DNA of 64,000 bases from Clostridia bacterium. GTDB lineage: Bacteria > Bacillota > Clostridia > Christensenellales > UBA1242. This document shows, piece after piece, positions 4,121 through 53,603 of the stretch; position 1 is the first letter of the stretch; every line of letters begins with the position of its first letter. The stretch spans positions 261,264 to 325,263 of the forward strand of contig JAFVEA010000009.1 of the NCBI GenBank assembly GCA_017478185.1, given 5' to 3'. A program made the position numbers and the translations under genes. The notes under the pieces are model-generated. The model worked only from the letters and a program-made list of their open reading frames with translations. It searched no databases and was not told where the DNA came from.

Positions 4121-4468
4121 ATGAACAAGATAAACAAAATTATGGTTGAGAGAGAACCATTCCAGAAAGATGGAAAAAACTATTTCTCATATTTTATAAA
4201 AGGAACAGTTAGAGGAAAAGACATTCGAGTTCTTATAACTCCACCAGACAAAGGTGGTTGGCAAGTTCTTGACATTGTTTTTGGAGATGCTAATGAGGCA
4301 GAACTTGAACTTAAACCTTATGAAATGAAAAATGAAGCAACAGGAGAGGTTATTAAGGGAAATTCTTTTGCTGTTAAGTCTGTTGACGAAAATGGCGAAG
4401 TTTATGAATGTAAAATTAAACCTCTAAGGTCTTCAGATAAAATGCTCTTAAATATGCTAACTAAATAA
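4121..4468 (+). CDS. hypothetical protein, candidate ssDNA-binding (gene-V position) / DUF961-like
   Basis: 115-aa ORF with AAGGAGA SD. Beta-rich, small, and placed before the structural genes. The function is inferred from position only. Confidence 0.3.
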   Translation: MNKINKIMVEREPFQKDGKNYFSYFIKGTVRGKDIRVLITPPDKGGWQVLDIVFGDANEAELELKPYEMKNEATGEVIKGNSFAVKSVDENGEVYECKIKPLRSSDKMLLNMLTK

Positions 4469-4477
4469 TTCAAATAA

Positions 4478-4508
4478 GGCATAGGTGAGTTTGCCTATGC
4501 CTTGTTTT
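4478..4508 (+). terminator. hairpin / attenuating terminator
   Basis: GGCATAGG-N8-CCTATGCC followed by TTGTTTT. Confidence 0.55.
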
Positions 4509-4532
4509 CTATTTTGAAAAAAGGAGGAAAAA

Positions 4533-6602
4533 ATGGCAATTACTGATTTTATTGTTGGTGCAGTTATTGGATTAGTTGTAGCTTTAATTGTCGTTCTCAT
4601 TCTTCAAAACACAGTGTTAAAAGGAAAAAACATGGCTCTTTTGTATGCTATTATGTTTATTCTTTTTGCTGTTGCTGGTGGATTTATTCAGAAATCAACT
4701 TTTTCAAAAGTTGAAGCTGCTGGTTATACGCCAACGCCTCAGGAGCAAATAAAAGATGTTACTGATGCTATTGGTGATAACTGGAAAAACACAAATGGTG
4801 GTTTTACTTTTGAACAAATTCAAAAAGCTCAAGAAGATAGTGAAGCGCCTTTTCATGATGACCAAATAATTAATCTTACTTGTTATGATTTTGGTTCATA
4901 TATTGTCTTTGGTTTTAAAGATGGTAGTAAATACCAAAATATGCTTTTCTATAAATCTAATGATGGGCTAATTTTGGATGGAATAATTAACAAACATATT
5001 GCGATACCAGGTGTGAAATGGTTTTTGGCTTATGATTTAAACACTTTTAAGTGGATTGACCATCAAGACCATGAACCAACTTACGAAAAAAATCACCACT
5101 GGCTTTGGGGTGATTATGACACACTTTGTTCAATGTCTAGAAGCATTCCACAATTCCTAGAATATAGTGGTTATGCACTAACAAACAAAGATGAAACATT
5201 TAAGTATTGCTTTAAAAACATTGCTAATCTTACAGGTAAAAATGCAACTTCATATTTTATTAAGTTTGGAGATGTTGAGTTAATTGGAACGAATGCAACT
5301 GGATATACAAAAATAAATGGTTTTTACAACTATTTATATGAACAAATCAAAGGTGAGCAATATAACACAACAAAACTTATTGATGGTTCGCAATGTTTGT
5401 GTTTGCCAATTCCACAGGACTTACAAAGGAATTATCCAATAAGTCCAAGTAAGAAAGCTGAATATGGTAACAAAGATTATTATGGTGTTTATCGACTAAA
5501 CATTGCAGTTAATCTTAGTTTCAAACAGGGTAGTAATTCACTTACTTCAACTGTTAAGAATGAAGAATATGTTAACACTTTAAAGAACGATAGAAATTAT
5601 CAAGAACAAGTTGCTGTTGAAAAAATAACACCAGCAACAATATATTCAAAGCTAGATCTATCTTTTGTGGATGAAAGACAAAGTGATTTATCACAAGTTG
5701 ATTTACTACAAAATCCAGTTAAAATCACATTCACTTGCTCAGATAGCAGTCAAACAAAGGTTGTATTGATTGATAATATTGCAAAACTTAATAGTGGACT
5801 TACACTTTTATTATCTAAAAATGTTACATGGAATTATTTGATTGAAAGTGAAAAGCTGATTTTTGATAATTTCAGAGGCTCATTTACGATAAAAAGTGAT
5901 GTAACTAATATGTCTATGTCTTATTATTATCTAAACAATTATACTATTGCATCTGTTGGGTTAAATCCAGTAGGCACAATAGACACAAGTGAGATTGATT
6001 TACTCAATAATCCAGTAAAGATTATTCTTTCAAATGATGACCACACTTATCAATTTAGTTTTGATAGTAACAGTGATTTGAATGTATATAAGAATTTGCT
6101 TGTTGAAATGGGAACATATAACTACACAATTCTTTCTAAACAACTAATTTTTGCAAGTGTTACTGGAACTCTTACAATCACAACAACAGATAAAGTAATG
6201 CTCTTTAATTATACACTTGGAGTTAAAGAAGCATTAAGTTTTAATGTTTCACTATATAAATACAGCACAACAAACAATCAATTCTATTTGTATAGTGATG
6301 CATCAAATGTAACTCTTATTAGAGATACATTATCAAGTGCAAAAATTTATGTTGTAAACTGTGTTATTTACGATAATGATGGTCGTATTATGGAGAACTT
6401 TAATCATACTCATCAAAGTACTGGAACTTGTTCTGCTAGTTGGAATGCGAGTCATTTAGTTGCTGGGCAAACATATACTCTTCAACTTAGATTCACAGAC
6501 CAAAACGATTCTACGAAAACATATTTATCTGATATAACAACATTTACATTTCAAAACAATTACGGGTATAGGGTAACTTATACTGCAACAAGAAATAATT
6601 AA
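4533..6602 (+). CDS. large membrane-anchored protein (two N-terminal hydrophobic helices, beta-rich ectodomain); candidate adsorption/minor coat protein
   Basis: 689 aa. The N-terminus is MAITDFIVGAVIGLVVALIVVLILQ followed by MALLYAIMFILFAVAGGFI. No recognisable catalytic motif. Confidence 0.6.
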   Translation: MAITDFIVGAVIGLVVALIVVLILQNTVLKGKNMALLYAIMFILFAVAGGFIQKSTFSKVEAAGYTPTPQEQIKDVTDAIGDNWKNTNGGFTFEQIQKAQEDSEAPFHDDQIINLTCYDFGSYIVFGFKDGSKYQNMLFYKSNDGLILDGIINKHIAIPGVKWFLAYDLNTFKWIDHQDHEPTYEKNHHWLWGDYDTLCSMSRSIPQFLEYSGYALTNKDETFKYCFKNIANLTGKNATSYFIKFGDVELIGTNATGYTKINGFYNYLYEQIKGEQYNTTKLIDGSQCLCLPIPQDLQRNYPISPSKKAEYGNKDYYGVYRLNIAVNLSFKQGSNSLTSTVKNEEYVNTLKNDRNYQEQVAVEKITPATIYSKLDLSFVDERQSDLSQVDLLQNPVKITFTCSDSSQTKVVLIDNIAKLNSGLTLLLSKNVTWNYLIESEKLIFDNFRGSFTIKSDVTNMSMSYYYLNNYTIASVGLNPVGTIDTSEIDLLNNPVKIILSNDDHTYQFSFDSNSDLNVYKNLLVEMGTYNYTILSKQLIFASVTGTLTITTTDKVMLFNYTLGVKEALSFNVSLYKYSTTNNQFYLYSDASNVTLIRDTLSSAKIYVVNCVIYDNDGRIMENFNHTHQSTGTCSASWNASHLVAGQTYTLQLRFTDQNDSTKTYLSDITTFTFQNNYGYRVTYTATRNN

Positions 6603-6616
6603 AAGGAGAAAAATAA

Positions 6617-7825
6617 ATGGATACAGTTAAAAATGTATTTTTAAGTATTGGATGTGTGGCTTTTGCTTTTGTTGTAGCTCTTTGTGTTTTAATGTGTGTT
6701 CCTTCAACAAGAACTGGGATATACAGAATGCTTAATGTTGCATCAATAGGTGAGCAAACACAAATTGCAGATGAAAAAACAGAGCTTTACATTCAAACAC
6801 AAACATATAGAGTTCAGCTTGAAAGTTTGAATCAAGAAAAATCAAGAATTGAACGGGAGCTTGAACGTTTGCAAGAAGATTATGATGAAGGTGTTGCTAT
6901 GCTTGCTGAATATCAAACAACAATAACAAATCTTAATCAGGAGCTTGCAGATGCAAACAATGATAACAATAACTTGCAAAATCAAATTGTAGGGCTTAAT
7001 GTTAGTATTCAAAATCTAAACAACCAAATTGATGGTTATGTTTCACAAATTGATACACTTAACAATGACCTTAATGATTTAAATGTTCAATATGATTCTT
7101 TATATTCTCAATTAGAGTTTATAACTCAACAAAAAGAGGATTTAATTAGTCAAAATACTATTCTTTCAAATGAGGTTTCTCATTTAAATAATCATATTGT
7201 TGGTTTAAATAATTCAATTTTTGACCTTGAGAATAGAATTCAAACTCAAAATGATAGAATTATGTCTTTAGAGGACACAATTTCAGTACTCAATATGGAG
7301 ATTCAAGACTTGAATGAACAACTTTGGCAATATCAAAGTGAACCATTAGTTATAACAAGACATGATGAATTTAATGTTTTGTGTGCAAGTCGTGTTGAAA
7401 ATGAATTACCTTGTTGGGATGCTGCTAATTCTTTTGATGTTGAGGATGAGTTCGTTAGAACTGGTTATCAAATCAAAAATGAATGGCTTAGTAAATATTC
7501 TTTATTAAATGAGAGCATTCAACACAGTTTTGAGCTTGGTTATAATCCTATTTTGCAATATTATGTGTCTGTTGTCGCAAGCTCAGGAAATTACAAAGCA
7601 GACGAGGATGTTTTCGTTCTTGAAAGAAGATTTGAACCAGAATACACATTCTCTGTTGATGGAGCAATCGATGATGAGGTTATGAGTATTGAAGATTTCG
7701 AAAATGCTTTAGTAGATGATTGCAATTATTTATTTACTGTTGAAATTGCAAATAGTTGGAATTATGAAACAGGTAGAGTGGCTAATTTGAGTGTTCATGT
7801 TAGGGTTTATACAGAGTGGCAATAA
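6617..7825 (+). CDS. N-terminally anchored coiled-coil protein
   Basis: 402 aa. TM segment VFLSIGCVAFAFVVALCVLMCV, then about 200 aa of N/Q/L/E heptad-like sequence and a globular C-terminus. Confidence 0.6.
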   Translation: MDTVKNVFLSIGCVAFAFVVALCVLMCVPSTRTGIYRMLNVASIGEQTQIADEKTELYIQTQTYRVQLESLNQEKSRIERELERLQEDYDEGVAMLAEYQTTITNLNQELADANNDNNNLQNQIVGLNVSIQNLNNQIDGYVSQIDTLNNDLNDLNVQYDSLYSQLEFITQQKEDLISQNTILSNEVSHLNNHIVGLNNSIFDLENRIQTQNDRIMSLEDTISVLNMEIQDLNEQLWQYQSEPLVITRHDEFNVLCASRVENELPCWDAANSFDVEDEFVRTGYQIKNEWLSKYSLLNESIQHSFELGYNPILQYYVSVVASSGNYKADEDVFVLERRFEPEYTFSVDGAIDDEVMSIEDFENALVDDCNYLFTVEIANSWNYETGRVANLSVHVRVYTEWQ

Positions 7826-8649
7826 CTATAATATTTGCACCACCAAGAACTGGTAAAACTTCATTTATGTCTTATTTGCTTAATTGTTATGCTTTTGATA
7901 AAGAAAGAAACAAGAGTATGCGTCAGGAAATTCAGCAGAAAAATCAAAATGGTTTTAAGCTTAGCATTCCAAAGCACTGTGTTTCTGCGAATTATAATTT
8001 AACTTTTTCAAAATTTGGTTATAGTAAAAGGCATAACAGATTGATAAATCCATTTAAGTTGGGTTTTAAGAATGATTTTGTGAAAACTCATTTTAATTAC
8101 CCATATGAAGTTATTGGAATTACTGAAGCCCAAAAATACTTAAATAGTAGAATGGCCATGTATTTTCCAGAGTGGCAGTCCAGGTGGTATGAACAACATG
8201 GACATAATCATTTAGAGATTTTATTAGACACTCAAAGACCGAATTTAATTGATGTGAATATTCGAGAAATTTCACAATTTATTGAAATACTTAACTTAAA
8301 AATATGTTATAACAAGTTTGGAAAGATTAGTAAAATGAAATGGACTATTAGGAAAATTGATAATTCAAGTCTATTTGAGAAATATATGTCTAGTGGCAAG
8401 AAAGATAAAAGTTGTTATAAACAAGAAACTGTTGTTGCTCATTTTGATGTTTTCTCAATTTACTCAAGTGAATGTTGTAAACCAAAGTTTTATGACGGAC
8501 ATTTTGAAGAAGATTTTGATATTCAAGAAAGCAAAACAACAGAAGAAAGCTTTTTAGGGTTTGTTAAATTCTTAGATGAGTTCGATGATGAAATGCCGGA
8601 AGGATTTTATCAGCCTAAAACTGTAAAGAAGAAGAAAGATGAACTATAA
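7816..8649 (+). CDS. Zot-like (filamentous-phage pI-type) P-loop NTPase
   Basis: Walker A APPRTGKTS, Walker-B-like VIGITEAQ, and the Zot-family block HGHNHLEILLDTQRPNLIDVNIRE (compare HRH-G-D-TQ). Overlaps the upstream stop. No TM helix seen. Confidence 0.7.
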   Translation: MAITIIFAPPRTGKTSFMSYLLNCYAFDKERNKSMRQEIQQKNQNGFKLSIPKHCVSANYNLTFSKFGYSKRHNRLINPFKLGFKNDFVKTHFNYPYEVIGITEAQKYLNSRMAMYFPEWQSRWYEQHGHNHLEILLDTQRPNLIDVNIREISQFIEILNLKICYNKFGKISKMKWTIRKIDNSSLFEKYMSSGKKDKSCYKQETVVAHFDVFSIYSSECCKPKFYDGHFEEDFDIQESKTTEESFLGFVKFLDEFDDEMPEGFYQPKTVKKKKDEL

Positions 8650-8938
8650 CAAGAATAAACTTATCAACATAACCCTAGACAAGTATTATGAAACTTTTTC
8701 ACACACACTAGATACATATGATTTTGTACCAGAAAAGTACAATACAAAAGTATGTAAATATATTTTTAAGAATATGAAAAAATCCTTTAAGAAGATTGAT
8801 AAGGAAGATAGGATTTATCAGCGAATGCTTAAGCGTAAAGAAAAAGAAAAGCAAAAAGCATTAAAGCCAAAGCAAAGTTTCTTCCAAAGATTATTTAAAA
8901 GAAATAATCAAACAAATTCTAATTTAAAGGAGGATTAA
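8639..8938 (+). CDS. hypothetical basic protein
   Basis: 99-aa ORF overlapping the Zot-like stop. Lys-rich C-terminus. Confidence 0.5.
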   Translation: MNYNKNKLINITLDKYYETFSHTLDTYDFVPEKYNTKVCKYIFKNMKKSFKKIDKEDRIYQRMLKRKEKEKQKALKPKQSFFQRLFKRNNQTNSNLKED

Positions 8939-17796: not shown

Positions 17797-18087
17797 TTAA
17801 TCTAGTTCTTTAAACCAGATGTAGTAGTGTATTGGTATTTCTTTTGTTGTTATTCTATCTTTATCGTCTTTTAGTTCTAATTCAGCCCAATATTCATAAT
17901 TACCTGAGTATGAACCATCTTCTTTTTTGAAGCAGTATTTGCTTATGTCTTCAAAAGCTTTGATAAATGAGTTACCAGTTTTTGAACTTATTGAAGATAT
18001 AAATAGAGTATCTTCTGCAACATAGCCAATACCTTTTTGTTTTTCTTTTGTTTTTGATTTAGTTATTGAGTAAGCAACTGTTTTCAT
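17797..18087 (-). CDS. hypothetical protein (96 aa)
   Basis: I moved the start to the ATG behind AAGGAGGA. Preceded by a long hairpin that includes this SD. Confidence 0.5.
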   Translation of the reverse strand: MKTVAYSITKSKTKEKQKGIGYVAEDTLFISSISSKTGNSFIKAFEDISKYCFKKEDGSYSGNYEYWAELELKDDKDRITTKEIPIHYYIWFKELD

Positions 18088-18096
18088 AAATAAAAT

Positions 18097-18260
18097 CCTC
18101 CTTGCCTTTTTGGCAGCAAAAACACAATAGTTATGCTGGATTTTTTGCAAAGGTTTGCCTTTGGACACGAATTTAAGGTTTTATTTTAGTGTTTTTAATG
18201 AGTGCCTTTGCAAAATAAGACAAATAACTATATAAGAGCCAAGACAAAAAGGTAAGGAGG
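18097..18260. repeat. long imperfect inverted repeat (about 165-nt hairpin), paralog of 24805-25028
   Basis: Arm CCTCCTTGCCTTTTTGGC...ATAGTTAT...TTTTGCAAAGG versus reverse complement of the other arm CCTCCTTACCTTTTTGTC...ATAGTTAT...TTTTGCAAAGG. Confidence 0.65.
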
Positions 18261-18322
18261 CAGCCAATCCAGAAAACAGTTGTTTATACAAAAAACTTTT
18301 TTGTTATAAAGTTGTTGGTATT

Positions 18323-19207
18323 CTATTTTTTATCTTCGCTAAATCTATGTATTTTTGTTTTTCTTGATTTCTGCGTTCCACGAGCATAGACTATTTCTGG
18401 ATAACCAAACCCTACAATTAAACCTGTGTAATGATCTTTTGGAATATTAAGTAATTCCCTTGCTTCTGGAACAAGTTCGTTTAGGACTTCACTTGAATAG
18501 GACATTATTATTGTTCCAAGACCAAATGAATTGGCGAGTATGTCAAAATATGCTGTTGCGATGTTACAATTGTTTTTACTATCCTCCGCCCACTTTCCCA
18601 CACATTTTTCATGCGCAATAAATAGGTGTGGAGCCCCACAAAATAAAAGGTCTCCATTGCGGACAGTTTTTTCAGATTCTTTCATCTTTTTATAATAAAA
18701 ATCGCTAAAACTATGAGTGTATATATGCTGATGAGCGAGTTCATCCATTTTTGTATAAGCTATTTTTTGAATCTGTTTAACTCTTTCTTTGTCGTCGATA
18801 ACAGTGTATTCAGTGTTGCAAGCATTTCCACCAGTTGGTGCATTCTCGAGTGCTGATAAAATTTTATCTATAATTTCTGGCTCAACATTTTTGTCCAAAA
18901 ATCTTCTGCAAGACCTACGGTATTTAATCAATCTCTCCATTTGTTCGCCAAGATTTTTGTCCGGTGGTAAGCAAGAATTTTCTGGCTTTTTGTTAAAAAT
19001 TGAAATGGCACCCACAGGGCAAACAGCAAGACAATGTTCACATCTCCAGCAACCACGCCAGCCAAATCTTTCAAAAGGCTTTATTGATGGATAGCCCTGT
19101 GCATCTATTTCAATAACCATCCCAGAGCAGACATTACGACATTTCCCACACTTTATACATTTAGTTTTATCTACAATAAAATTACATCTATTTGATATAT
19201 CTTCCAT
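18323..19207 (-). CDS. ferredoxin-domain (2x[4Fe-4S]) nitroreductase-family protein
   Basis: CIKCGKCRNVC and CEHCLAVCP clusters followed by a nitroreductase-like domain (RRSCRRF). Confidence 0.75.
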   Translation of the reverse strand: MEDISNRCNFIVDKTKCIKCGKCRNVCSGMVIEIDAQGYPSIKPFERFGWRGCWRCEHCLAVCPVGAISIFNKKPENSCLPPDKNLGEQMERLIKYRRSCRRFLDKNVEPEIIDKILSALENAPTGGNACNTEYTVIDDKERVKQIQKIAYTKMDELAHQHIYTHSFSDFYYKKMKESEKTVRNGDLLFCGAPHLFIAHEKCVGKWAEDSKNNCNIATAYFDILANSFGLGTIIMSYSSEVLNELVPEARELLNIPKDHYTGLIVGFGYPEIVYARGTQKSRKTKIHRFSEDKK

Positions 19208-19210
19208 AAA

Positions 19211-20161
19211 TTACTCCATTGTTACAATAATTTTTCCATCAACACCTTTTTCTTGTGCTTTGAGTGCTTCTTTTATTTCACTAAACTTAAAGTTTACCCC
19301 AATAAAAGGCTTAATTTTTGCGTTATCTAAAAGTTTAAAAATATTGTCTATATCTTTCTGTGTTGGATAATTTGAGAAAAATCCAGTTAAGTATGTTCCA
19401 TTTGGAATTTCTTTTATTGGATCAAAATCATTAAGAGCAAAAACTCCACCAAGAATACCAGTATTGCAACAAACTCCACCTTTGTTTAGACATTGTAAAC
19501 TATCTCGGAGTGTTTTTGGACCAATAAGTTCAAGAATTTTATCTGTTTTAATGTGCTCATCAAGCTTTCCTTTATTATCTAAAAGACATTCGGCACCAAG
19601 GTCCGTGACAAAGTGCATTTTTTCTTTTTTGTGTGTTGTGCCAATAACTTTTGCTCCAACTGCTTTTGCAAGTTGAATGGCTGCATAGCCAAGAGCACAA
19701 GTTGCTCCACGAATAAGCAAAGTTTCTCCTTTTTTTAATTGTAAGCACTCAAAAAGAGAGCCATAAGCAGTGAAAAATGTTTCTGGAATAGCTGGCAAAT
19801 ACTTATTTTCCATTTTTGAATTTATATGGAAAACATTTTTAACTGGAAGTAGAGCATATTCTTCATAACTTCCATTAAAGTTTCTACCCATTCCGCCCAT
19901 AAGAGCGCAAACCTTGTCTCCAATCCTAAAATCATCATCTAAACTTTGTTCAATAATTCCCACACATTCTATTCCTGGAACTATTGGTTTTTGTATATAA
20001 TCTTCTTGAATTTCATTTTTTCTAAGTATTAGTTCAGAGTGATTAAGACCAAACCCCAAAACTTTAACAACGACCCAGCCTTTTTTTGCTTTTGGCTTTT
20101 CAATTTCAGATAAAAATATATCATCACTATTTGTGATTTTTGTTAGCACCACTGCTTTCAT
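19211..20161 (-). CDS. MDR-family zinc-type alcohol dehydrogenase / quinone oxidoreductase
   Basis: GLNHSE, GIECVG, and the nucleotide-binding IRGATCALGYAAIQLAK. Confidence 0.8.
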   Translation of the reverse strand: MKAVVLTKITNSDDIFLSEIEKPKAKKGWVVVKVLGFGLNHSELILRKNEIQEDYIQKPIVPGIECVGIIEQSLDDDFRIGDKVCALMGGMGRNFNGSYEEYALLPVKNVFHINSKMENKYLPAIPETFFTAYGSLFECLQLKKGETLLIRGATCALGYAAIQLAKAVGAKVIGTTHKKEKMHFVTDLGAECLLDNKGKLDEHIKTDKILELIGPKTLRDSLQCLNKGGVCCNTGILGGVFALNDFDPIKEIPNGTYLTGFFSNYPTQKDIDNIFKLLDNAKIKPFIGVNFKFSEIKEALKAQEKGVDGKIIVTME

Positions 20162-20223
20162 ATTTCTTCTCCTTTATATGATAATATTTTATCATAAAAA
20201 TCAAAAATTGTCATATTTTAAAA

Positions 20224-20262
20224 CAAAAAAACCGAGGCAAAGATTTTACTCTCTACCTCGGC
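20224..20262 (-). terminator. terminator of the 24740-20277 operon
   Basis: On the minus strand CCGAGG-N18-CCTCGG is followed by a T-run. Confidence 0.5.
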
Positions 20263-20276
20263 ATGTAGTTCTATTC

Positions 20277-20537
20277 TTAAAATTCTAATTTGGAGCTTTC
20301 AATTCCAATGAGAAGTCCTGTTTTAAAACCATTTACATATTTTTCACAAGCAAAGTTATCTAATTTTTCACCATATAATTGAATATATTGTTCAAAGATG
20401 TCTTTTTGGTTTTCATTTAAGAAACTTTTTATTAGTTCATAAAGTTCATTTTCTTTTGGATTTTGATTTAACATTGCTTTTGATTTTCTTGATATTTCAT
20501 CTATGTTTCCATAATAAAGTTCTTCAATTATATTCAT
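20277..20537 (-). CDS. hypothetical protein
   Basis: 86-aa ORF overlapping the upstream stop. Confidence 0.5.
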   Translation of the reverse strand: MNIIEELYYGNIDEISRKSKAMLNQNPKENELYELIKSFLNENQKDIFEQYIQLYGEKLDNFACEKYVNGFKTGLLIGIESSKLEF

Positions 20538-20854
20538 AGGATTGCTCCTTTATCTGGTATATAAATTTTATCTGCAACTTTTATCGCTTTATAGTTTTTT
20601 CCATCTATAATTTGTTCAGTATATTCTGGTTTTCCATCTGTGTTTGCTCTTAGGAAAATGCTTTCATTATCTTCTTTTGCTGGCTCAATGTTAATATCAA
20701 TCATATTTTCAAGTCTGCCGACTTCGATAATATCAACATCTTTCTTGATTAAGTATGAGCTAAATTCCCATAGTTTTTCAAATTTTCCATTTGAATCTAC
20801 TATAAAGCAAACATCATCTTCTTTATAATATCCGGTTATTCTGTAGTAATTCAT
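20534..20854 (-). CDS. hypothetical protein
   Basis: 106-aa ORF in an operon with the PcfJ-like gene. Confidence 0.5.
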   Translation of the reverse strand: MNYYRITGYYKEDDVCFIVDSNGKFEKLWEFSSYLIKKDVDIIEVGRLENMIDINIEPAKEDNESIFLRANTDGKPEYTEQIIDGKNYKAIKVADKIYIPDKGAIL

Positions 20855-20865
20855 TTTTTATCTCC

Positions 20866-22188
20866 TTATATTGTTATTTGTTTTATTTGATTATTTGCGT
20901 AGGGCAGCCAAATTTTGTTTATATATTCAAGTATCTGTTCATTTGGCTGTGAGTTGTGTATTGCATAACATTGCAGTATTTTGTGTGTTTTTGGGTCATA
21001 TTCTATTGTTACAAGAGGAATTGTTGGTTGTTCTTTTAACCTTACAAAGAATATTAAACTTTCTTCGTTTACAAATTTCTTATCATAACCCATATGACCA
21101 ACACAGTGATGAAGAGCTTCACCTTCTTTTGTGAGTTCTTTTGGAGAATGTGCAATCAAAGTTATATAGTTTTCATTTAACTTTCGTTGCATAATCTTAT
21201 ATTTATCTGCAATGATTTTAAAGTTTTTGCAAAATTGTTTCATTTGTTTTTTATCTTCTTCCATTTTTTTGTTATGATATTCTTCAGTTCTAATATTGTG
21301 CCAATAACTTAAATCATGGGGCATAAGGTTTTTAGGTAAACTCATATCAAGTCCAAGATATTCACAAGCTGTTAGATAGTCATCATAAACCTCTTCATAC
21401 ATATTTAGTTTTGTTATGTATTTATAAAACTTTTCCACATTTCCACAAAAAGCAGTTTTTATATGTGTATAACAAGGTTTTTTCATAAAAGGTCTTAAAA
21501 AATATTCAAACTTTTGAATTTCCATTAAGTTTCGATTTTCTTTATATGCTTTCATTATTGCAGAAATATAATACGAATAGTTGCTTAACTCATTTGAATG
21601 GTTAATAATCCATTTTCTAAACTTTTTATCTTTTGCAAGCTTATTAAGTATTGTTTTAGACATACAATATTTTTCTAATCCAAGTTTTAATAGATATTCT
21701 GCTTGAGGATATTTTTCATACATTCTCAAATATTTTAATTCGTTGGTAAATTCTAGTGATGTAACTTGGCTATATTTGTATTTCTCTATTTTTAAAGCAA
21801 GTTCTGGATTTATGTTTGTTATATATGGTATAAAGAAATATTTATCATCAGCATAACCCCAGTCATCACTTTCAAACCAAGTTTGATATTTTGATAATCC
21901 TTCAGCATACCACCCAACAGAATATCCAGCAATTTGTGTGAATTTTATATCTTTAACATAACAAATCTTTCCATTATCGCAATGGATTACAACTTGTTTG
22001 CAATACCATTTGTTGTATTTGTTTTTAACAGCAACAGTTATTTGCATTAAGTGTTTTTTCCAAATAGCAAAGTAGTTATAAAATCTAACACGATTAAATT
22101 TGTCTTTGTGGTGTTTTTTATCTATACTTTTTATCTTTTTTATGATATATTTTGGAATAGGTTTAATTATTGTTTCATCAACTTTCAT
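20866..22188 (-). CDS. PcfJ-like protein
   Basis: C-terminal EGEALHHCVGHMGYDKKFVNEESLIFFVR matches the PcfJ HCVG signature. Follows a PcfK-like gene, as in conjugative elements. Confidence 0.65.
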   Translation of the reverse strand: MKVDETIIKPIPKYIIKKIKSIDKKHHKDKFNRVRFYNYFAIWKKHLMQITVAVKNKYNKWYCKQVVIHCDNGKICYVKDIKFTQIAGYSVGWYAEGLSKYQTWFESDDWGYADDKYFFIPYITNINPELALKIEKYKYSQVTSLEFTNELKYLRMYEKYPQAEYLLKLGLEKYCMSKTILNKLAKDKKFRKWIINHSNELSNYSYYISAIMKAYKENRNLMEIQKFEYFLRPFMKKPCYTHIKTAFCGNVEKFYKYITKLNMYEEVYDDYLTACEYLGLDMSLPKNLMPHDLSYWHNIRTEEYHNKKMEEDKKQMKQFCKNFKIIADKYKIMQRKLNENYITLIAHSPKELTKEGEALHHCVGHMGYDKKFVNEESLIFFVRLKEQPTIPLVTIEYDPKTHKILQCYAIHNSQPNEQILEYINKIWLPYANNQIKQITI

Positions 22189-22198
22189 TTTTATCTCC

Positions 22199-23014
22199 TT
22201 ATAATATTTTTAAGTTATTGTCTAATAGTTTTTGAAGAATATCTATTTTTGTATTTTCAAGTTCAGTTTTTCTTTTTTCATAAATAGTTTCATTGTTATC
22301 TTCAAGGACAAGAAGGGTAGATTGTTTTTGAAGTGTTTCAAAATATTTGTCTTTAAGATGAATAGGGAAGCCAGCAAGTTTCACTGGTTCAACAAAGCCA
22401 AAGTCTTTTGATGTTAAAACAAGATTTAGTATGCTTGAAATCTTTTCAGCATTGTTATCATAAGCTTCATAAAAATCTCCAAGTTTAATAAGAGTTATTT
22501 TATCTGAGTTTTCATCTTGTGTTTTGGCATATAATTTGTAATAATCTGGAATTTTTTCTTCAGCTTGTTTTAGTTCTTCATTTATTTTTGGCTTATCTAA
22601 GTCCATGAAATCAAAAAGTGTTTGTTGAGGTGTTTGTTTTTTAACTTCAACTTTAGGTTCAATCTTTGGAGCAACCTTTGGTTTTGGCTTTTCTTCTTCG
22701 TAGATACTGCCATCAAGATTATAAAGTGTTCCAATAATCGAATCTTCTTCAAAGTAGTGTATCGCCCAACCAAAAACAGTTGAATCTTCTATGCAAGCAT
22801 AACTTGCTCCTTTTTCTGCAAGTTTCTTAGCTTCATTATTTGCATATTGGAAAAATCCAGTTAAATTTTTCTTATTAACAAGTTCTTTTTTGTTTTTTGT
22901 GGTTTTCACACCCAAATTTATCTTATTTGCAAGATTTTCACTAGCATTTTTTTGCAAATAATCTTTTATTATTTCTTGTTCTTTGTTTTTTGTTTCCAAA
23001 TTTAATTCAATCAT
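22199..23014 (-). CDS. PcfK-like (AcrIIA9-family) N-domain fused to a MutS domain-I-like C-domain
   Basis: N-terminal IIKDYLQKNA...STVFGWAIHYFEEDSI resembles PcfK/AcrIIA9. C-terminal ITLIKLGDFYEAYDNNAEKISSILNLVLTSKD...LAGFPIHLKDKYFETLQKQSTLLVLED aligns with the E. coli MutS mismatch-binding domain (GDFYE ... MAGIPYHAVENYL). Confidence 0.55.
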   Translation of the reverse strand: MIELNLETKNKEQEIIKDYLQKNASENLANKINLGVKTTKNKKELVNKKNLTGFFQYANNEAKKLAEKGASYACIEDSTVFGWAIHYFEEDSIIGTLYNLDGSIYEEEKPKPKVAPKIEPKVEVKKQTPQQTLFDFMDLDKPKINEELKQAEEKIPDYYKLYAKTQDENSDKITLIKLGDFYEAYDNNAEKISSILNLVLTSKDFGFVEPVKLAGFPIHLKDKYFETLQKQSTLLVLEDNNETIYEKRKTELENTKIDILQKLLDNNLKIL

Positions 23015-23041
23015 AATAATTCCTTTTAATAAAAAGAAGCC

Positions 23042-23260
23042 CTAAAAAGGACATCTTCTTAATAATCTTTTTACTTCTGATTTTCTCATTTTGAAGATAG
23101 TAAAATGTGGATTTTTAACAATTCGCAGTGTTTTTCTGTTTTTAATAGTTTTGTTTTTCAAATTTTCTTTTTCAAAACAAGCAAGCTGATAATCATTTGT
23201 GGTTATGTATTTATGATATTTGTTTGCACTTTGTTTTTGGTAACATAATTTATAGTTCAT
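23042..23260 (-). CDS. hypothetical basic protein (72 aa)
   Basis: ATG overlaps the upstream stop (TAATG) behind AAGGAGGA. This is shorter than the listed 93-aa ORF. Confidence 0.45.
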   Translation of the reverse strand: MNYKLCYQKQSANKYHKYITTNDYQLACFEKENLKNKTIKNRKTLRIVKNPHFTIFKMRKSEVKRLLRRCPF

Positions 23261-23676
23261 TATGCAGTCCTCCTTATTCCACCACCAAAACTTTGAATTC
23301 CAATAGTTCCAAATTCGCTGCAATCATCACAAGTTTTGTTCCAGACATATGCAAAAGCATAAAAATTTGATTTATTTTGTTGTTCAAGTAGAGTATCCCA
23401 TTCTTCTGGATAATCTGTTACAATTAAAAAATCATAACATTCACCAAATTCAGTGAACTCATGTGTTATTGCATAAACTGTGCAATTATAAGTTTCTTCA
23501 ATTTGTTTTTGCTTTTCTAATAATTCTTCATCTTGATAAGTCCAAAATCCAGCAAATTGCTTATAAAAGCAAGTGTCATTTTCTTTCTCAAAACCTTCTA
23601 TATAAGGTTTGTAAATATCTAATTGTTTTAAAAGCTCAATGGCTTTTTCTTTTCTTTGTTCTATATTAGTGTTCAT
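23260..23676 (-). CDS. hypothetical acidic protein
   Basis: 138 aa, Glu/Asp-rich. Confidence 0.5.
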   Translation of the reverse strand: MNTNIEQRKEKAIELLKQLDIYKPYIEGFEKENDTCFYKQFAGFWTYQDEELLEKQKQIEETYNCTVYAITHEFTEFGECYDFLIVTDYPEEWDTLLEQQNKSNFYAFAYVWNKTCDDCSEFGTIGIQSFGGGIRRTA

Positions 23677-23691
23677 TTTTTAATCTCCTTT

Positions 23692-24309
23692 TTATAACAT
23701 AGTTTCTTGCCAAGGGTCTATAAAATTACAGTCTCTTTTTGTAAATCCCTTTAATGCTAGTGTTGTTTTTAAATTATTATCGTCAAATGATATTTCATCA
23801 AAAGCCCAAATTCCAACTTGTTCTTTATTTATTCCATAATAATCTCCACCACCATATTCGTTCCCAATGGCTGTTAGTAGTGAAAGAGGATGCATACACC
23901 ATTCTTTAATACTATTTGTTTCAATATATTCTTGCATATTCAAATATTCTTGTTTTGTCCAGTTTATAAGTAGCATCTTGCTGGTTTCAAATTGTTTTAA
24001 AATAAGTGATTTTTCTTTTCTGTTCCAAGCAATTTCGTGTAGCTTATATGCTTGTTTCAAACTTAAGTTTGGGTTGTGTATATCTTTAATGTCTATTTGG
24101 TTTACATAATCACCAACCCAAGCAACTTTCATAGGATTTTTATAAATAATGTTTGAAAAACTTTCCATAGTATAATTGCCAATCCAACTATGTTCAGTAA
24201 GTTTTGCTAGCATATATTCTGGTTTGCTGGCTTGATTTGTTTTGATTGATCTATCGTAAACAGTGTATTTTCTATCTTTGTATGTTAAAATGTTATAATA
24301 TTGTCCCAT
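23692..24309 (-). CDS. hypothetical protein
   Basis: 205-aa ORF with AAGGAAG SD. Confidence 0.5.
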   Translation of the reverse strand: MGQYYNILTYKDRKYTVYDRSIKTNQASKPEYMLAKLTEHSWIGNYTMESFSNIIYKNPMKVAWVGDYVNQIDIKDIHNPNLSLKQAYKLHEIAWNRKEKSLILKQFETSKMLLINWTKQEYLNMQEYIETNSIKEWCMHPLSLLTAIGNEYGGGDYYGINKEQVGIWAFDEISFDDNNLKTTLALKGFTKRDCNFIDPWQETML

Positions 24310-24326
24310 ATTTTTACTTCCTTTTA

Positions 24327-24740
24327 TTAATATCTTTTTAAAGCTTTTTGTAGTCCATGTTTTAGATTTTTGTGTTTTTCAATTTCTTCCATTGTTAAAT
24401 CAAGAGCATCTAGTGTTTCATCAAGTGAATAGGTGATACAGTATTCGTGGTTAGCTAATTCATCTCTAAACATTTGATAAATATAACCATTTCCAGTTTT
24501 GTCATTATCAATTTCTTGTTGATGCTCTTGTTTGTGCCTTTTAAAAGTGTTCATAACCCAATCATAATCACTTTTTTTGATGTAACAGCCACTACCTATG
24601 GTACAAATAGCTTGTAAATTGTCTTTTTCTAAACCAAATTTTTCCATCATTTCATCAAATTGTTTATCGCTATAAGCAAAACCCAATGGCAGTTCATTAA
24701 CTTCCTTTTGATGTTTTTGTCTTAGTTCATAGTAATTCAT
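24327..24740 (-). CDS. hypothetical protein (first gene of the operon)
   Basis: 137-aa ORF with AAAGGAGA SD. Preceded by a mini-ORF and a long hairpin. Confidence 0.5.
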   Translation of the reverse strand: MNYYELRQKHQKEVNELPLGFAYSDKQFDEMMEKFGLEKDNLQAICTIGSGCYIKKSDYDWVMNTFKRHKQEHQQEIDNDKTGNGYIYQMFRDELANHEYCITYSLDETLDALDLTMEEIEKHKNLKHGLQKALKRY

Positions 24741-24804
24741 AATTTTTCTCCTTTTCTATTAATAATATTTTTAAAACCAAAAAGCGTTAAAAAACATAAA
24801 TCAC

Positions 24805-25028
24805 CTCCTTTTGGGCTTTTTGGCAAGGAAACAAAAAGTCATAGTTCGGCTATTTGTTTTTGTGATTTAAAGTTTAGGGTAGGAGTCAATGAAAAAGAAA
24901 AAATATTATTATAAATAAAGAAAAAGACCAGGTTAAAAACCTAGTCTTTAAAAAGTGTATTAAAATATTTTTTCCGTTTACTCCTACGAGAAATATGACA
25001 AACTGTTTCCCAAAAAGCCCAAAAGGAG
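24805..25028. repeat. long imperfect inverted repeat (about 224-nt hairpin)
   Basis: The outer arms are a perfect 19-nt repeat, CTCCTTTTGGGCTTTTTGG / CCAAAAAGCCCAAAAGGAG. Inner matches are GAAACA, GTCATA, GTAGGAGT and GAAAAAATATT, with an apical hairpin AAAGACCAGG-N7-CCTAGTCTTT. Confidence 0.7.
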
Positions 25029-25119
25029 AACATAAAACTTATTTGTTTTTTATGTGAAAATGAAGACAAAATACTATTTTTTTGTTATAATGTGAGTGAT
25101 AATATAAAGGAGTTTTGAG

Positions 25120-25704
25120 TTGATTAAGGCTTTTATTAAGGAAATTCGAGAATCTTTGGATAAAGAAATGTATATGTCGGCTTTAACGTTGACACTGATT
25201 TTGCCTGATATGTGTGGTCAAGTTGAATATTCAGGTGAAAAGCCTAAAGAAAGGTATATAAAATGGTTTGATAATTTTGTGGCTTCTAGTATGAGACATC
25301 GGTATGATGATGATAAAATCCCTTATGTAAGTGGGCAAATTGCCTGGGATTTAAGAAATAATGTAATACATGGTGGTGATCCAGATGTAAATAGTAAGGA
25401 AAGTGATATACAAGATTTTAAACTTTTAGTTCAAGAAAAAGGAAGATCGGCTTATGCGGGAACTAGTACATGTGTAATGACTAAAATTATAAATGGGCAA
25501 GAGATTGTGGAACATAGATCGATTACTATAGCCCTGAGAGATTTTTGTAATACAGTTTGTTGCTGTGTTAATGCGTACTATAAAAAAAATATAGATAAAT
25601 TCACTTTTAAGTATAAGGTTGTAAATATAGATGATATGTCGGCAAAACTGATGGTTGGTGTTAAAAGAGAGGTGTATAAAAAGGATGAAGAAAATGAAGG
25701 ATGA
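25120..25704 (+). CDS. HEPN-motif protein (194 aa)
   Basis: AWDLRNNVIHGGDP contains Rx4H. Predicted to be helical. TTG start. Confidence 0.4.
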   Translation: MIKAFIKEIRESLDKEMYMSALTLTLILPDMCGQVEYSGEKPKERYIKWFDNFVASSMRHRYDDDKIPYVSGQIAWDLRNNVIHGGDPDVNSKESDIQDFKLLVQEKGRSAYAGTSTCVMTKIINGQEIVEHRSITIALRDFCNTVCCCVNAYYKKNIDKFTFKYKVVNIDDMSAKLMVGVKREVYKKDEENEG

Positions 25705-26968
25705 GATAAAATGTGGTAAAAAAGATGAAAATCTTTTTACTTGGATTAATGGAAAAGTTCAAAGTATTCAAAAAAAATGGCTTGTGATTTTGTTATCAAT
25801 TGTAATTAATCTGCTGATGTGTTTTTTATTGGCTGGATTTTATTTTTTGCCATTTATTAATTATAAATCTTTAGCTTTAAAAATAATTTTTGGGGTTATT
25901 TGGATATTTGGAGCTGTGTGTATGGCACTTATATATTTCTTTAATAAGAAATCGGATAAAGAGCATTTATTGGCTCATATTATAACAACAATATTTTTTG
26001 TTATAACTTTTGGTTTAATTTTTGTTCATAATAATATATTTTCATTTGGAACAATCTCTTCAGTTCTAACAATAATATTGTTTATCTTTTTTCTATTAAT
26101 TGGGGTCATTAGTTTATTAGTTGTTGCTAAAAATGATAAAAAGATATTTATTCAAGCATTAATACTGTTTGTGGTAGGCTTTTTGTTGTTTTGCTTTTTT
26201 TATGGTGCATTAATAAACACTTCAGTTGATGAGAGTATTAGAAAGTATATAGCTATTGCTAGCTTTTTTGCTTTGGTTGCATTAATACTTGGATTTTACA
26301 TGAACTATTTATTTAAATCGGATAAATATAGGTATACTTACATTTTCTCAGGGTTGTTTTTGGGGATAATCGTTATTTTATTTTTTATTTCTTGGATTAT
26401 ACATTATTTTGATAATAGTATTTCAATTATGGGAGTGTTTGTTCAGTTTTTTGCTTCGGCTATAGCTGGAGGATTAACAGTTTTTGGTGTTGCCTTAACT
26501 ATTAAGAATGGTGAAAAAGAAAGAAAATATGAAGAAAAAAATAAAATTAAGCCATATTTAAAAAATTTTTATATGACAAATTCAGATATAGATAATGTTA
26601 CTAATAAAAGTATAGAAATAAATAAAAACAAGAATTATAAGAAACAATCGTTTAAGATGTATCTACAAAATATAAGTGATGCAATAGCTATTATAAATGG
26701 ATTAGTTATTTATAATGAATACTATACTATTGGTAATATTGTATTGGAAAAGAATGCTAAAGTCCGAATAGATGTTGATTATTTTAAGGAAAAAATTGAA
26801 ATTTTGAAAGAAATAAAAATTATTGCATCTGATATACAGGAGAATTATTATGAGTTTGATATGTTATCTGACAATATTTGTGAAAAATCCCAATGTGAAA
26901 ATATTTCAATAGGTTTACCCGTTGAAATAAAAAATGCTGATGCATTAATAAATAAAAAAATCAACTAA
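25655..26968 (+). CDS. polytopic membrane protein (about 9-10 TM) with soluble C-terminal domain
   Basis: Successive hydrophobic helices between residues 40 and 290, then a 150-aa hydrophilic tail. An alternative start at 25685 (MKKMKDE) overlaps the upstream gene. Confidence 0.6.
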   Translation: MVLKERCIKRMKKMKDEIKCGKKDENLFTWINGKVQSIQKKWLVILLSIVINLLMCFLLAGFYFLPFINYKSLALKIIFGVIWIFGAVCMALIYFFNKKSDKEHLLAHIITTIFFVITFGLIFVHNNIFSFGTISSVLTIILFIFFLLIGVISLLVVAKNDKKIFIQALILFVVGFLLFCFFYGALINTSVDESIRKYIAIASFFALVALILGFYMNYLFKSDKYRYTYIFSGLFLGIIVILFFISWIIHYFDNSISIMGVFVQFFASAIAGGLTVFGVALTIKNGEKERKYEEKNKIKPYLKNFYMTNSDIDNVTNKSIEINKNKNYKKQSFKMYLQNISDAIAIINGLVIYNEYYTIGNIVLEKNAKVRIDVDYFKEKIEILKEIKIIASDIQENYYEFDMLSDNICEKSQCENISIGLPVEIKNADALINKKIN

Positions 26969-27020: not shown

Positions 27021-27096
27021 TGGAGCTAGCGATCGGACTTGAACCGACGACCTCCTCGTTACCAACGAGGTGCACTACCGACTGTGCTACGCTAGC
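27021..27096 (-). tRNA. tRNA-Thr (anticodon GGT), CCA encoded
   Basis: Manual cloverleaf: GCTAGCG/CGCTAGC acceptor, anticodon arm CCTCG-TTGGTAA-CGAGG, T-arm GTCGG-TTCAAGT-CCGAT. Confidence 0.85.
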
Positions 27097-27304: not shown

Positions 27305-27500
27305 CTTACCAAGGTGGTGCTCTACCCCTGAGCCACAGTAGCATACGATAAAAATATTAAATTGTGAAAGTTAGACCTAGTGGCTTACCAAGGTGGTGCT
27401 CTACCCCTGAGCCACAGTAGCATACGATAAAAATATTAAGTTGTGAAAGTTAGACCTAATGGCTTACCAAGGTGGTGCTCTACCCCTGAGCCACAGTAGC
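27305..27500 (-). repeat. three tandem 79-bp units, each containing the 5' ~38 nt of a second tRNA-Thr(GGT)-type gene truncated in the anticodon loop
   Basis: The reverse complement is GCTACTGTGGCTCAGGGGTAGAGCACCACCTTGGTAAG at 27342-27305, 27421-27384 and 27500-27463. No matching 3' half follows any copy. Confidence 0.8.
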
Positions 27501-27805
27501 ATAATAAATTATAAATTTATATTTTTATCTTAGGTCGCTTTTATATGATAATATAAAAGAATAAAAAAGTCAATTATATTTTAATTATTTAATACTTTTG
27601 AATTAATAAGTGTGAAAATTTGCGAAAAATTTTAAAAAGTTTTTATAAATAAAATACTTTTTAGTTGATATATTTCTTGTTTTTTTAATATAATCCTTCT
27701 AATGCGACTAAAAGTATGATTATGGATGTTAAAATTATATAAAACATAAAGAGATAAGTCAAGAGAAAGAAAAAAGGGCAGCGATTGCCCTTTTTTGCAT
27801 GGTCT

Positions 27806-30437: not shown

Positions 30438-30525
30438 GGACAGATGGTCGAGTGGTTTAAGGCACACGCTTGGAAAGCGTGCGATGTGAAAGCATCCGGA
30501 GGTTCGAATCCTCTTCTGTCCGCCA
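30438..30525 (+). tRNA. tRNA-Ser (anticodon GGA)
   Basis: Class II tRNA with a long variable arm, anticodon arm CACGC-TTGGAAA-GCGTG, CCA encoded. Confidence 0.85.
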
Positions 30526-30737
30526 ATAAAATTCAGCTAAGGCAAAGAGGATTCGAACCCAAGGGTTCCCACCGCAAACGATGTTTGCTTTCTGGCCGGG
30601 TGAAGCCTTTGGCGTTCACCCCGCTTTAGCTAAAACAGCCCACTGGGCTGTATTTTTAACGCAAAGCGCCTCTTCTGTCCGCCAGTAAAGTTAAGCTAAG
30701 GCGAGGAGGATTCGAACCCAAGGGTTCCCACCGCAAA
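30510..30737 (+). repeat. direct ~69-nt duplication of the tRNA-Ser 3' end plus downstream sequence
   Basis: CCTCTTCTGTCCGCCA...GCTAAGGC.A.GAGGATTCGAACCCAAGGGTTCCCACCGCAAA at 30510-30578 and 30669-30737. Confidence 0.75.
30635..30657 (+). terminator. Rho-independent terminator inside the duplicated interval
   Basis: ACAGCCC-ACT-GGGCTGT followed by ATTTTT. Confidence 0.6.
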
Positions 30738-30802
30738 TTTTGTTTATCAACAAAAATAATAATAGTATTTTTGCTTATTTTTGTTTTTAGGAGGAAATAT
30801 AA

Positions 30803-53602: not shown

Positions 53603-53603
53603 T

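Follow-up and report, generated by a model that had tools for sequence, protein, structure and literature searches.

A covarying hairpin leads a PcfJ and PcfK-MutS operon on a probable inovirus-like element of a gut Clostridia bacterium

What sort of element carries a tight block of eight small genes, PcfJ and PcfK among them, that runs up to a long hairpin, and what might the hairpin do for the genes behind it? These questions are raised by positions 20277-24740 of a 64,000-nucleotide stretch of Clostridia bacterium DNA (contig JAFVEA010000009.1; hereafter the window), which had been singled out as a candidate anti-defence leading region. Analysis of the window and of 39 related loci revealed that the hairpin, more than a boundary, leads the operon as a conserved element with covarying pairs, and that the block shares the window with an integrase, a rolling-circle Rep and a Zot-like ATPase. 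We propose that the block is an establishment or counter-defence operon led by a hairpin-borne single-stranded DNA (ssDNA) promoter on an integrated rolling-circle, inovirus-like element, a reading that we consider about evenly balanced between right and wrong.

The eight open reading frames (ORFs) of the original prediction were all recovered on the minus strand at 20277-24740, with the overlapping stops and starts that it had described (b2 and b1 by 4 nt, b6 and b5 by 1 nt) and with gaps of 11-28 nt between the other genes. The terminator that it placed near 20224-20262, the presence of small acidic proteins, for which b6 was its example, and the long hairpin at 24805-25028 were likewise borne out. 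In order along the window, the block and its borders comprise:

20231-20262, minus strand: terminator-like stem-loop after b1, 13 pairs and a T run (terminator scan)
20277-20537, minus strand: b1, 86 amino acids, DUF6809 (Pfam, 50.6 bits)
20534-20854, minus strand: b2, 106 amino acids, acidic, no Pfam family
20866-22188, minus strand: b3, 440 amino acids, PcfJ (PF14284, 98.3 bits against a cut-off of 25)
22199-23014, minus strand: b4, 271 amino acids, N-terminal PcfK-like domain, disordered linker and C-terminal MutS domain I
23042-23260, minus strand: b5, 72 amino acids, basic, isoelectric point 10.2, no Pfam family
23260-23676, minus strand: b6, 138 amino acids, acidic, isoelectric point 4.4, net charge -13, no Pfam family
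23692-24309, minus strand: b7, 205 amino acids, weak PHROG matches (phrog_3156, phrog_35050), no Pfam family
24327-24740, minus strand: b8, 137 amino acids, DUF7659 (PF24692, 158.5 bits)
24771-24797, minus strand: vestigial ORF of 8 codons (MFFNAFWF) with its own perfect GGAGG-N8-ATG, directly behind H2
24802-25032, minus strand: hairpin leader H2, a ~230-nt imperfect inverted repeat upstream of b8

The best start for b5 is the ATG at 23260, which is also the start in gene calls on public contigs. Searches of the block proteins against PHROGs returned unnamed phage families only, and NCBIfam returned nothing apart from the MutS N-terminus. PDB sequence searches with b6, b7 and b8 were empty, neither b6 nor b7 had a match in PADLOC (defence systems), and the DNA of the block gave just two short, weak matches to plasmids and phages.

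A PcfJ scan of species-representative genomes returned the 39 related loci (PcfJ 44-48% identity), nearly all from uncultured gut Clostridia (Christensenellales, Eubacteriales and Acutalibacteraceae). Comparison of the loci by tblastn and by clustering of their ORFs revealed a conserved order: a gene like g17797, which stands elsewhere in the window; F4, of ~75 amino acids; one to four b6 paralogues; a variable middle; the PcfK-MutS domain I gene; PcfJ; b2; and sometimes b1. The g17797 family is the first gene of the block in the relatives, directly behind the hairpin. The most conserved protein of the block is b6, often with 2-4 paralogues per locus; b2, directly 3' of PcfJ, is kept in 29 loci, and homologues of b5, b7, b1 and b8 were found in ten, five, four and only two loci, respectively. 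The variable middle holds b7, b5, other small families and DUF7222, with a DUF4942 methylase in one locus. Because all genes but b8 and b1 have syntenic homologues in many of the 39 loci, the block genes are not chance ORFs. The view of the block as an accessory module of a mobile element stands; the conjugative character ascribed to that element does not, the element being of rolling-circle type, as set out below.

In the window, g17797 is displaced to the far side of a dehydrogenase and nitroreductase insert, where it has a hairpin of its own:

17797-18268, minus strand: g17797, a 96-amino-acid gene (ATG at 18087), and hairpin H3 (18094-18268)
18323-19207, minus strand: ferredoxin-nitroreductase, cargo 3' of the block, not in the relatives or the X4 variant
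19211-20161, minus strand: Zn-dependent dehydrogenase, cargo 3' of the block, not in the relatives or the X4 variant

The 8-codon ORF behind H2 is apparently the stump of the operon's original first gene, the g17797-like gene that stands there in the relatives. A variant contig from public run X4 (window 18263-20548; joints in public-run contigs are noisy) joins b2 directly to H3 and g17797, without b1, the dehydrogenase or the nitroreductase. By joining b2 straight to the g17797 module, the variant confirms b1 and the two redox genes as an insertion, and it shows hairpin-led modules being shuffled.

Several lines of evidence established the hairpin as a feature of the operon. As DNA, H2 folds at -51 kcal/mol, whereas its shuffled versions gave -24 +/- 3.4, a z of -8 for each of the two strands. 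In every locus, the 330 nt upstream of the g17797-like gene folded into a long hairpin, and an nhmmer profile built from the relatives' hairpins, trimmed to 258-296 nt, recovered the element both from the window (24805-25024, score 90.6, E 2e-26) and from 22 related loci. The hairpin is always on the block's strand, reverse-strand scores being about seven-fold lower (~27 vs ~180), and its 3' end lies 12-21 nt before the first start codon in the 22 loci. Two copies were found in one relative (L027), before two different genes. The window also has two, H3 being a second, shorter, diverged copy before g17797 (fold z = -4.3); both H3 and H2 have the CTTTTTGGCA box, and the left-hand stretch over which they align includes CCTCC and the start codon. 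In three relatives (L011, L018 and L040), the hairpin leader before the block's first gene is itself immediately preceded by an HTH-Fic/DOC gene of opposite strand (at ~4650-5600 in L011).

Covariation was assessed in an 18-sequence alignment with pairs counted from per-sequence folds, because RNAalifold on the raw MAFFT alignment gave just one 9-pair helix. This analysis yielded 59 consensus pairs in seven helices, with 81.9% of cells paired, compared to 38-48% with slid partners. Compensatory changes were present in 38 of the 59 pairs, and the covariation score of 0.323 (0.07-0.11 for slid partners) was reached by none of 500 shuffles. Conserved parts include a basal helix, TTTTGCCTTTCG / CGAAAGGCAAAA, often extended such that CTCC pairs with the GGAG of the ribosome-binding site (RBS); a helix GTAGCAC / GTGCTAC; the pair GTCAACGG / CCGTTGAC, which gives the 3' arm a TTGAC(A/T) hexamer read in the sense direction; a bulge of ~40 nt, likewise in the 3' arm; and, at the apex, a GC-rich stem-loop with a T run behind it. 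In H2, the apical terminator-like stem-loop with its T run is at 24949-24923, the hexamer is a TTGACT box at 24889-24884, and GGAGG lies in the basal helix. H2 also contains a promoter-like TTAACC-N17-TATAAT (24936-24908), which is not conserved in the relatives, and a further promoter-like site lies just upstream (25058-25029). Rfam had no family for the hairpin at gathering or relaxed thresholds, and a genome-wide pattern scan for hairpin bases gave five true matches among 120, chance matches from GC-rich genomes swamping the rest.

The nature of the carrier could be read from the left part of the window, which holds the following features:

216-1598, minus strand: tyrosine integrase (Pfam PF00589)
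1600-1779, minus strand: small gene like Xis or helix-turn-helix (HTH) genes, adjoining the integrase
4121-8938, plus strand: morphogenesis-like module encoding 115-, 689- and 402-amino-acid proteins, the Zot/pI-like ATPase and a 99-amino-acid protein
7816-8649, plus strand: Zot/pI-like P-loop ATPase, 277 amino acids (phrog_197, 'Zot-like toxin', E 3.7e-7; PDB 2r2a, E 8.8e-4)
8940-9959, plus strand: rolling-circle Rep (PF23343 REP_ORF2-G2P, 40.8 bits against a cut-off of 27.8)
9950-10170, plus strand: H1, two hairpins directly after Rep, putative origin (-76 kcal/mol, z = -12.5)
10257-15087, plus strand: AbiTii and type III restriction-modification (R-M), defence cargo located between Rep and the block (Pfam, PADLOC)
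11072-12880 (Mod) and 12874-15087 (Res), plus strand: the type III R-M genes (Pfam)

The 689- and 402-amino-acid proteins have hydrophobic N-termini that would serve as membrane anchors. The ATPase shows, by eye, Walker A and LLDTQRP..ID motifs, and its PDB match we take to be the N-terminal domain of a Neisseria Zot protein. Two unknown genes (15088-16845) come after the type III R-M genes, and the interval between Rep and the block also contains an HTH gene and a SLOG-family gene. The sporulation genes of the host (Spo0A, SpoIVB and RecN) begin about 0.5-1 kb to the left of the window, where the flank was read in locus L045, and to the right of the block a tRNA-Thr (27021-27096) has its 3' end towards the element; the 37 kb beyond it have a chromosomal look and no conjugation genes. 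The presence in the window of the integrase, the Xis-like gene, Rep, the Zot-like ATPase and membrane-anchored proteins indicates that the block belongs to an integrated ssDNA-replicating element, which by its gene content is probably a gut Clostridia prophage that is integrative, replicates by rolling circle and resembles filamentous phages (inoviruses). The presumed counter-defence operon and the defence systems AbiTii and type III R-M share this one element.

Seven of the relatives have the same module order as the window, minus the cargo. In these a Rep homologue (50-66% identity) lies just 3' of the block on the opposite strand, such that the block is convergent with Rep in all seven loci where Rep could be reached, as it is in the window (8/8). 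The relatives' Rep is followed by a membrane/P-loop protein of ~700 amino acids and then by membrane-anchored proteins. A homologue of the window's 115-amino-acid protein is present in two of the seven Rep-bearing loci, and integrase homologues lie nearby in five loci. The H1 hairpins, the strongest of the whole 64-kb window, also recur, as the same two hairpins stand beside Rep in six relatives (L006, L008, L013, L017, L023 and L030). The first often has TAGCG in its loop and the second bears an invariant ACTTGTATCAAGACAAGCACACGCC (seven loci); the two are probably the double-strand origin or nick site and a packaging or single-strand origin signal.

Conjugation genes were lacking, in agreement with what had been reported for the window: 40 window ORFs searched against Pfam gave no relaxase, type IV secretion system (T4SS) or coupling-protein domain, and none of these was found in the 10-kb flanks of the 39 relatives by homology to window proteins and a partial Pfam search. 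Nor was an origin of transfer (oriT) found.

Of the block's proteins, b4 is the most informative. The gene listed as PcfK-like does have a PcfK domain (PF14058 over residues 9-151, 31.3 bits for a cut-off of 27), the Pfam domain of the validated anti-CRISPR (Acr) protein AcrIIA9 (PMC6739104), but as a whole b4 is, by sequence and structural model, a fusion of PcfK to MutS domain I (PF01624, 47.9 bits). Its C-terminal 90 residues align with residues ~13-102 of MutS in Taq numbering (PDB sequence matches to Taq and E. coli MutS), its GDFYE falls on the GDFYE of Taq MutS, and GDF[YF]E is invariant across 28 diverse b4 homologues. The AlphaFold2 model (mean predicted local distance difference test, pLDDT, 79.5) has two confident domains joined by a disordered linker, and Foldseek placed it on MutS domain I with a root-mean-square deviation of 1.2-1.5 A. 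No MutS connector, core, clamp or ABC ATPase domain is present in the 271 residues, which hold domain I alone. The family is very large, with 2,443 homologous clusters in metagenomes; among the 120 listed, all have PF01624 and most also PF14058. The fusion occurs in none of the 72,556 plasmids of PLSDB.

The assignment of b3 to PcfJ was upheld, with the HHCVGH motif at residues 360-365 and H361, C362, V363 and G364 invariant in 32 homologues. Although its AlphaFold2 model is confident (pLDDT 91.4), a fold search of the PDB found nothing significant (best E 0.16) and a sequence search of the PDB no match; the matches in BFVD are PcfJ-like proteins of tailed phages only. Homologues of PcfJ were found in 81 records from phages of Enterococcus, Bacillus, Streptococcus and Listeria and on 301 plasmids, of which 182 are mobilisable, 86 conjugative and 33 non-mobilisable, the block's PcfJ having only 23-29% identity to plasmid PcfJ. 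PcfJ is therefore a general accessory gene of mobile elements and no marker of conjugation, and the habit of reading PcfJ or PcfK as a sign of conjugation is likely one of mis-annotation, which these data correct. The exact PcfJ protein was found on five gut-metagenome contigs with identical neighbours, and IMG/VR scans returned one locus for PcfJ and none for Rep. Conservation was also high for b6, which has 2,394 homologous clusters with 61-83% identity among the 120 best matches listed, none of these 120 having a Pfam domain or a name.

A search of Pfam, PHROGs and NCBIfam for known anti-defence genes returned the PcfK domain only. Because no validated anti-defence protein is matched beyond this domain, an anti-defence or establishment role is put forward as a hypothesis, and as the most attractive reading of the block. 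The alternative that fares best, which we consider somewhat unlikely, is that the block is a DNA-processing or replication-establishment module (strand conversion, protection of hairpins from mismatch repair, recombination) without a part in counter-defence. The intact Phe-X-Glu motif of the mismatch-binding MutS domain, the very high conservation of b6 and the PcfJ core, and the sharing of PcfJ by plasmids, integrative and conjugative elements, tailed phages and the window element are all consistent with such a module, and a MutS-like domain could find targets in the element's own hairpins, where mismatches and bulges abound. However, no polymerase, primase, single-strand-binding protein (SSB) or recombinase domain was found in the block in the same three databases, its variable middle with many small proteins is more typical of counter-defence islands, and the PcfK domain has one validated Acr member.

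The establishment or counter-defence operon that we favour would act through the hairpin as follows. When the element is ssDNA, after entry or during rolling-circle replication, the hairpin would fold and recreate a duplex promoter or priming site for host RNA polymerase, as in ssDNA promoters of the Frpo type or single-strand origins (sso), and the operon could be transcribed before or during complementary-strand synthesis. In the double-stranded DNA (dsDNA) or integrated form, the same sequence would be an ordinary promoter behind an insulating terminator. The PcfK-MutS domain I fusion may bind mismatched or hairpin DNA, and acidic b6 and the variable small proteins might act on the incoming DNA, host defences or repair.

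Mismatch types within the conserved pairs bear on the level at which the hairpin acts. In the sense orientation the apical stem shows 22 G.T vs 8 A.C, as a real RNA terminator would. In contrast, the long-range helices show 30 A.C vs 19 G.T (10 vs 1 in helix 6), which argues against a sense-strand fold at the RNA level and leans weakly to the Rep-sense strand, the test being a weak one with mixed signals between helices. Moreover, the terminator stands between the arms, and an mRNA starting downstream of it would necessarily lack one of the two. These observations, taken with the rolling-circle backbone, the hairpin's size and its duplex boxes, lead us to favour a role at the DNA level while the element is single-stranded. 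A promoter or leader is favoured over a pure origin by the constant spacing to the start codon and by the occurrence of two copies, each before a different gene. Rolling-circle elements usually displace the Rep-sense strand, in which case the single strand would be the template of the block; both this strand assignment and promoter activity on ssDNA we infer.

A number of observations weigh against the proposed reading. With respect to the promoter, no -10 was found at a consistent spacing from the conserved TTGACA, and the expected place of a -10, in the stretch 3' of TTGACA, falls in a one-arm unpaired bulge in most copies, which is awkward for a σ70 promoter on the template strand. With respect to polarity, the origin motif reads ACTTGTATC on the Rep strand and TCTTGATAC on the other, and TCTTGATAC resembles CTTGATA, which we take to be the nick core of pC194 and phiX174. 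If TCTTGATAC is a core of this type, the single strand could be the sense strand of the block, and the hairpin would then only prime DNA synthesis. The public runs that hold the sequence are DNA metagenomes only. With respect to function, the PcfK domain of b4, at 31 bits barely over its cut-off, is the only match of the block proteins to a validated anti-defence protein, and the identity among b6 homologues is unusually high for a counter-defence protein.

The inovirus-like assignment has contrary observations of its own. The relatives' ~700-amino-acid P-loop protein (F12) gave no significant Zot match, and many related loci have no Rep within 10 kb. Comparison of the left flank (L045) with the right end and the tRNA-Thr 3' end for attachment-site (att) repeats gave chance 13-15-mers only, and a major coat protein was not identified, the only candidates being doubtful hydrophobic ORFs of 39-42 amino acids. 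Because of the missing att repeats and coat protein, we call the element inovirus-like and not a proven filamentous prophage.

A more specific form of the proposal, which we think unlikely, is that this is an antisense 'zygotic' operon of a family of integrative, filamentous-phage-like ssDNA elements in gut Clostridia, with a promoter that forms solely or chiefly when the single strand is folded and that would express PcfJ, PcfK-MutS domain I and b6 before the element becomes dsDNA. In such an operon, the lone MutS domain would either shield the element's mismatched hairpins or blind host mismatch repair or defence.

That the hairpins are instead sso elements for priming by RNA polymerase, placed before the block incidentally while the block uses an ordinary dsDNA promoter, is improbable. 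Like an sso, the minus-strand origin of the Ff phages is a large imperfect hairpin on the displaced strand that host RNA polymerase recognises. The element has a rolling-circle Rep, the hairpins have a fixed orientation relative to Rep in all eight loci, and sso hairpins, at which RNA polymerase provides the primer, function in a single orientation and at a flexible position relative to rep (PMC5703833). The size of 230-290 nt and the imperfect-hairpin architecture fit the general description of sso elements (ssoA, U, T and W), ssoA itself being ~160 nt (PMC5703833), and a promoter-like TTGCCT-N15-17-TAGCA(C/T) at the base and the terminator-like apical stem recall RSB and CS-6 (TAGCGT; PMC4598088). 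In contrast to an sso, however, the hairpin of the block has its 3' end fixed 12-21 nt before the first start codon with the RBS in the basal helix, has two copies within one element, each heading a different gene (window and L027), has no convincing RSB/CS-6 arrangement, and is accompanied by separate strong hairpins beside Rep that could themselves be the origins. Membership in the ssoA type was rejected, since the resemblances (TGCCGAAAGGCA, and GTAGCAC in the stem) are loose and not in the ssoA arrangement (motifs from PMC4598088).

A hairpin acting in RNA, through a short RNA that runs from the 5' arm to the apical terminator and pairs with the complementary mRNA leader (3' arm and RBS region), or through an RBS-hiding stem of read-through transcripts that RNase III cuts, could repress or insulate the operon in the lysogen, an explanation that we find quite improbable. 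In its favour, the pairing of the RBS GGAG with CTCC in the basal helix shows compensatory changes, the T run and the sense G.T (G.U in RNA) bias of the apical stem-loop fit a real RNA terminator, the promoter-like site at 25058-25029 stands just upstream of the hairpin, and the 5' arm has boxes of its own (TTGCCT-N16-TAGCAT). On the other hand, the long helices have A.C at least as often as G.T, unlike structured RNAs, a hairpin acting in cis would need read-through of the terminator between its arms, and no Rfam family was matched. Finally, that the block is a leading region or remnant of a conjugative or mobilisable element whose oriT and relaxase lie outside the window or are lost, as the original prediction had it, is highly improbable: PcfJ and PcfK were named from pCF10, PcfJ homologues sit on 268 conjugative or mobilisable plasmids and Rep, as an HUH protein, could in principle also serve as a relaxase, but relaxase, T4SS and coupling protein are missing from the window and the examined flanks of the relatives, the block sits between the integrase/Rep/Zot module and the tRNA with host genes flanking the element on the left, and no plasmid searched has the PcfK-MutS domain I fusion.

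The proposed operon resembles several known systems in part. Frpo ssDNA promoters drive leading-region anti-defence genes of conjugative plasmids (PMC11541004). Like the Frpo/ssi leading regions of F, ColIb-P9 and many conjugative elements (Samuel et al. 2024, PMC11541004; Masai and Arai 1997), the block consists of unidirectional small, mostly uncharacterised genes, includes a family of which one member is a validated Acr, begins behind a long imperfect hairpin (~250-300 nt) with promoter-like boxes, and belongs to an element that would pass through a single-stranded stage, in an orientation fixed relative to the polarity of replication or transfer. Unlike these regions, it lacks ssb, psiB and ardA, and its element has no oriT, relaxase or T4SS, with a backbone of Rep, Zot-like ATPase and integrase in their place; unlike Frpo, the hairpin reaches the RBS and has an apical terminator and no identifiable -10, the likeness drawn being one of architecture. 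Plasmid pLS20 has repeated structured leaders before its establishment operons (PMC8708921). The EGeRS1 and EGeRS2 repeats of the pLS20 family are similarly long (>300 nt), structured, immediately upstream of an operon's RBS and present in several copies per Firmicutes element, and for EGeRS1 the authors argue against an ssDNA promoter, as the transferred strand is the non-template strand (PMC8708921). Here too the likeness drawn is one of architecture; gene content differs, and pLS20 is a conjugative plasmid.

As in pCF10 and Bacteroidota conjugative transposons, the block pairs PF14284 with PF14058, with the PcfK gene immediately upstream of PcfJ; unlike the PcfK of pCF10 and the Cas9 inhibitor AcrIIA9, that of the block is fused to MutS domain I. 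Like inoviruses (Roux et al. 2019, PMC6813254), the element has a G2P-type Rep, a pI/Zot-like ATPase, co-oriented membrane-anchored proteins, an integrase and intergenic origin hairpins. It differs in its size of at least 26 kb with cargo, in its opposite-strand operon of 4.5-6 kb and in having no identified coat protein. Ten hypothetical proteins from self-targeted P. aeruginosa inoviruses had no Acr activity (Roux et al., PMC6813254), so a counter-defence island in inovirus-like elements would be new.

If the proposal holds, the expression of counter-measures from an entering single strand would not be confined to conjugative plasmids but would extend, in an abundant and uncultured gut lineage, to ssDNA phages or to integrative rolling-circle elements; if the 'zygotic' form holds, the operon would do for a phage what the leading region does for a conjugative element. 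Leading-region islands are known; what is new is an analogous hairpin-led operon on an integrative rolling-circle, inovirus-like element. The locus also offers a covarying DNA element of ~260 nt that recurs in 22 further loci, an uncharacterised and very large PcfK-MutS family (>2,400 clusters), the highly conserved acidic b6 family (>2,300 clusters) and a confident PcfJ model without a solved structural relative.

Other features of the window lie outside the block. Between the hairpin and tRNA-Thr are two overlapping plus-strand genes (25120-26968), the first encoding 194 amino acids (phrog_18591) with an R-x4-H motif (RNNVIH) reminiscent of HEPN, and the second 437 amino acids with many membrane helices. 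Neither had a Pfam match above threshold or a PADLOC match; the two may form an abortive-infection-type pair. About 200 nt upstream of the intact tRNA-Thr, at 27305-27541, are three tandem 79-nt units on the minus strand, each containing a tRNA-Thr(GGT)-like gene cut off after its 5' half, at the anticodon loop, which may be scars of repeated integration or excision or a tandem duplication. At 30510-30745, the 3' end of a tRNA-Ser (30438-30525) and ~60 nt of flank are repeated 159 nt downstream with 90% identity, which looks like an att-like duplication from a very small or lost insert. Farther into the chromosomal part, at 51755-54734, a D12-class adenine methyltransferase (615 amino acids) overlaps an HNH-domain protein (380 amino acids), a second, chromosomal R-M-like pair.

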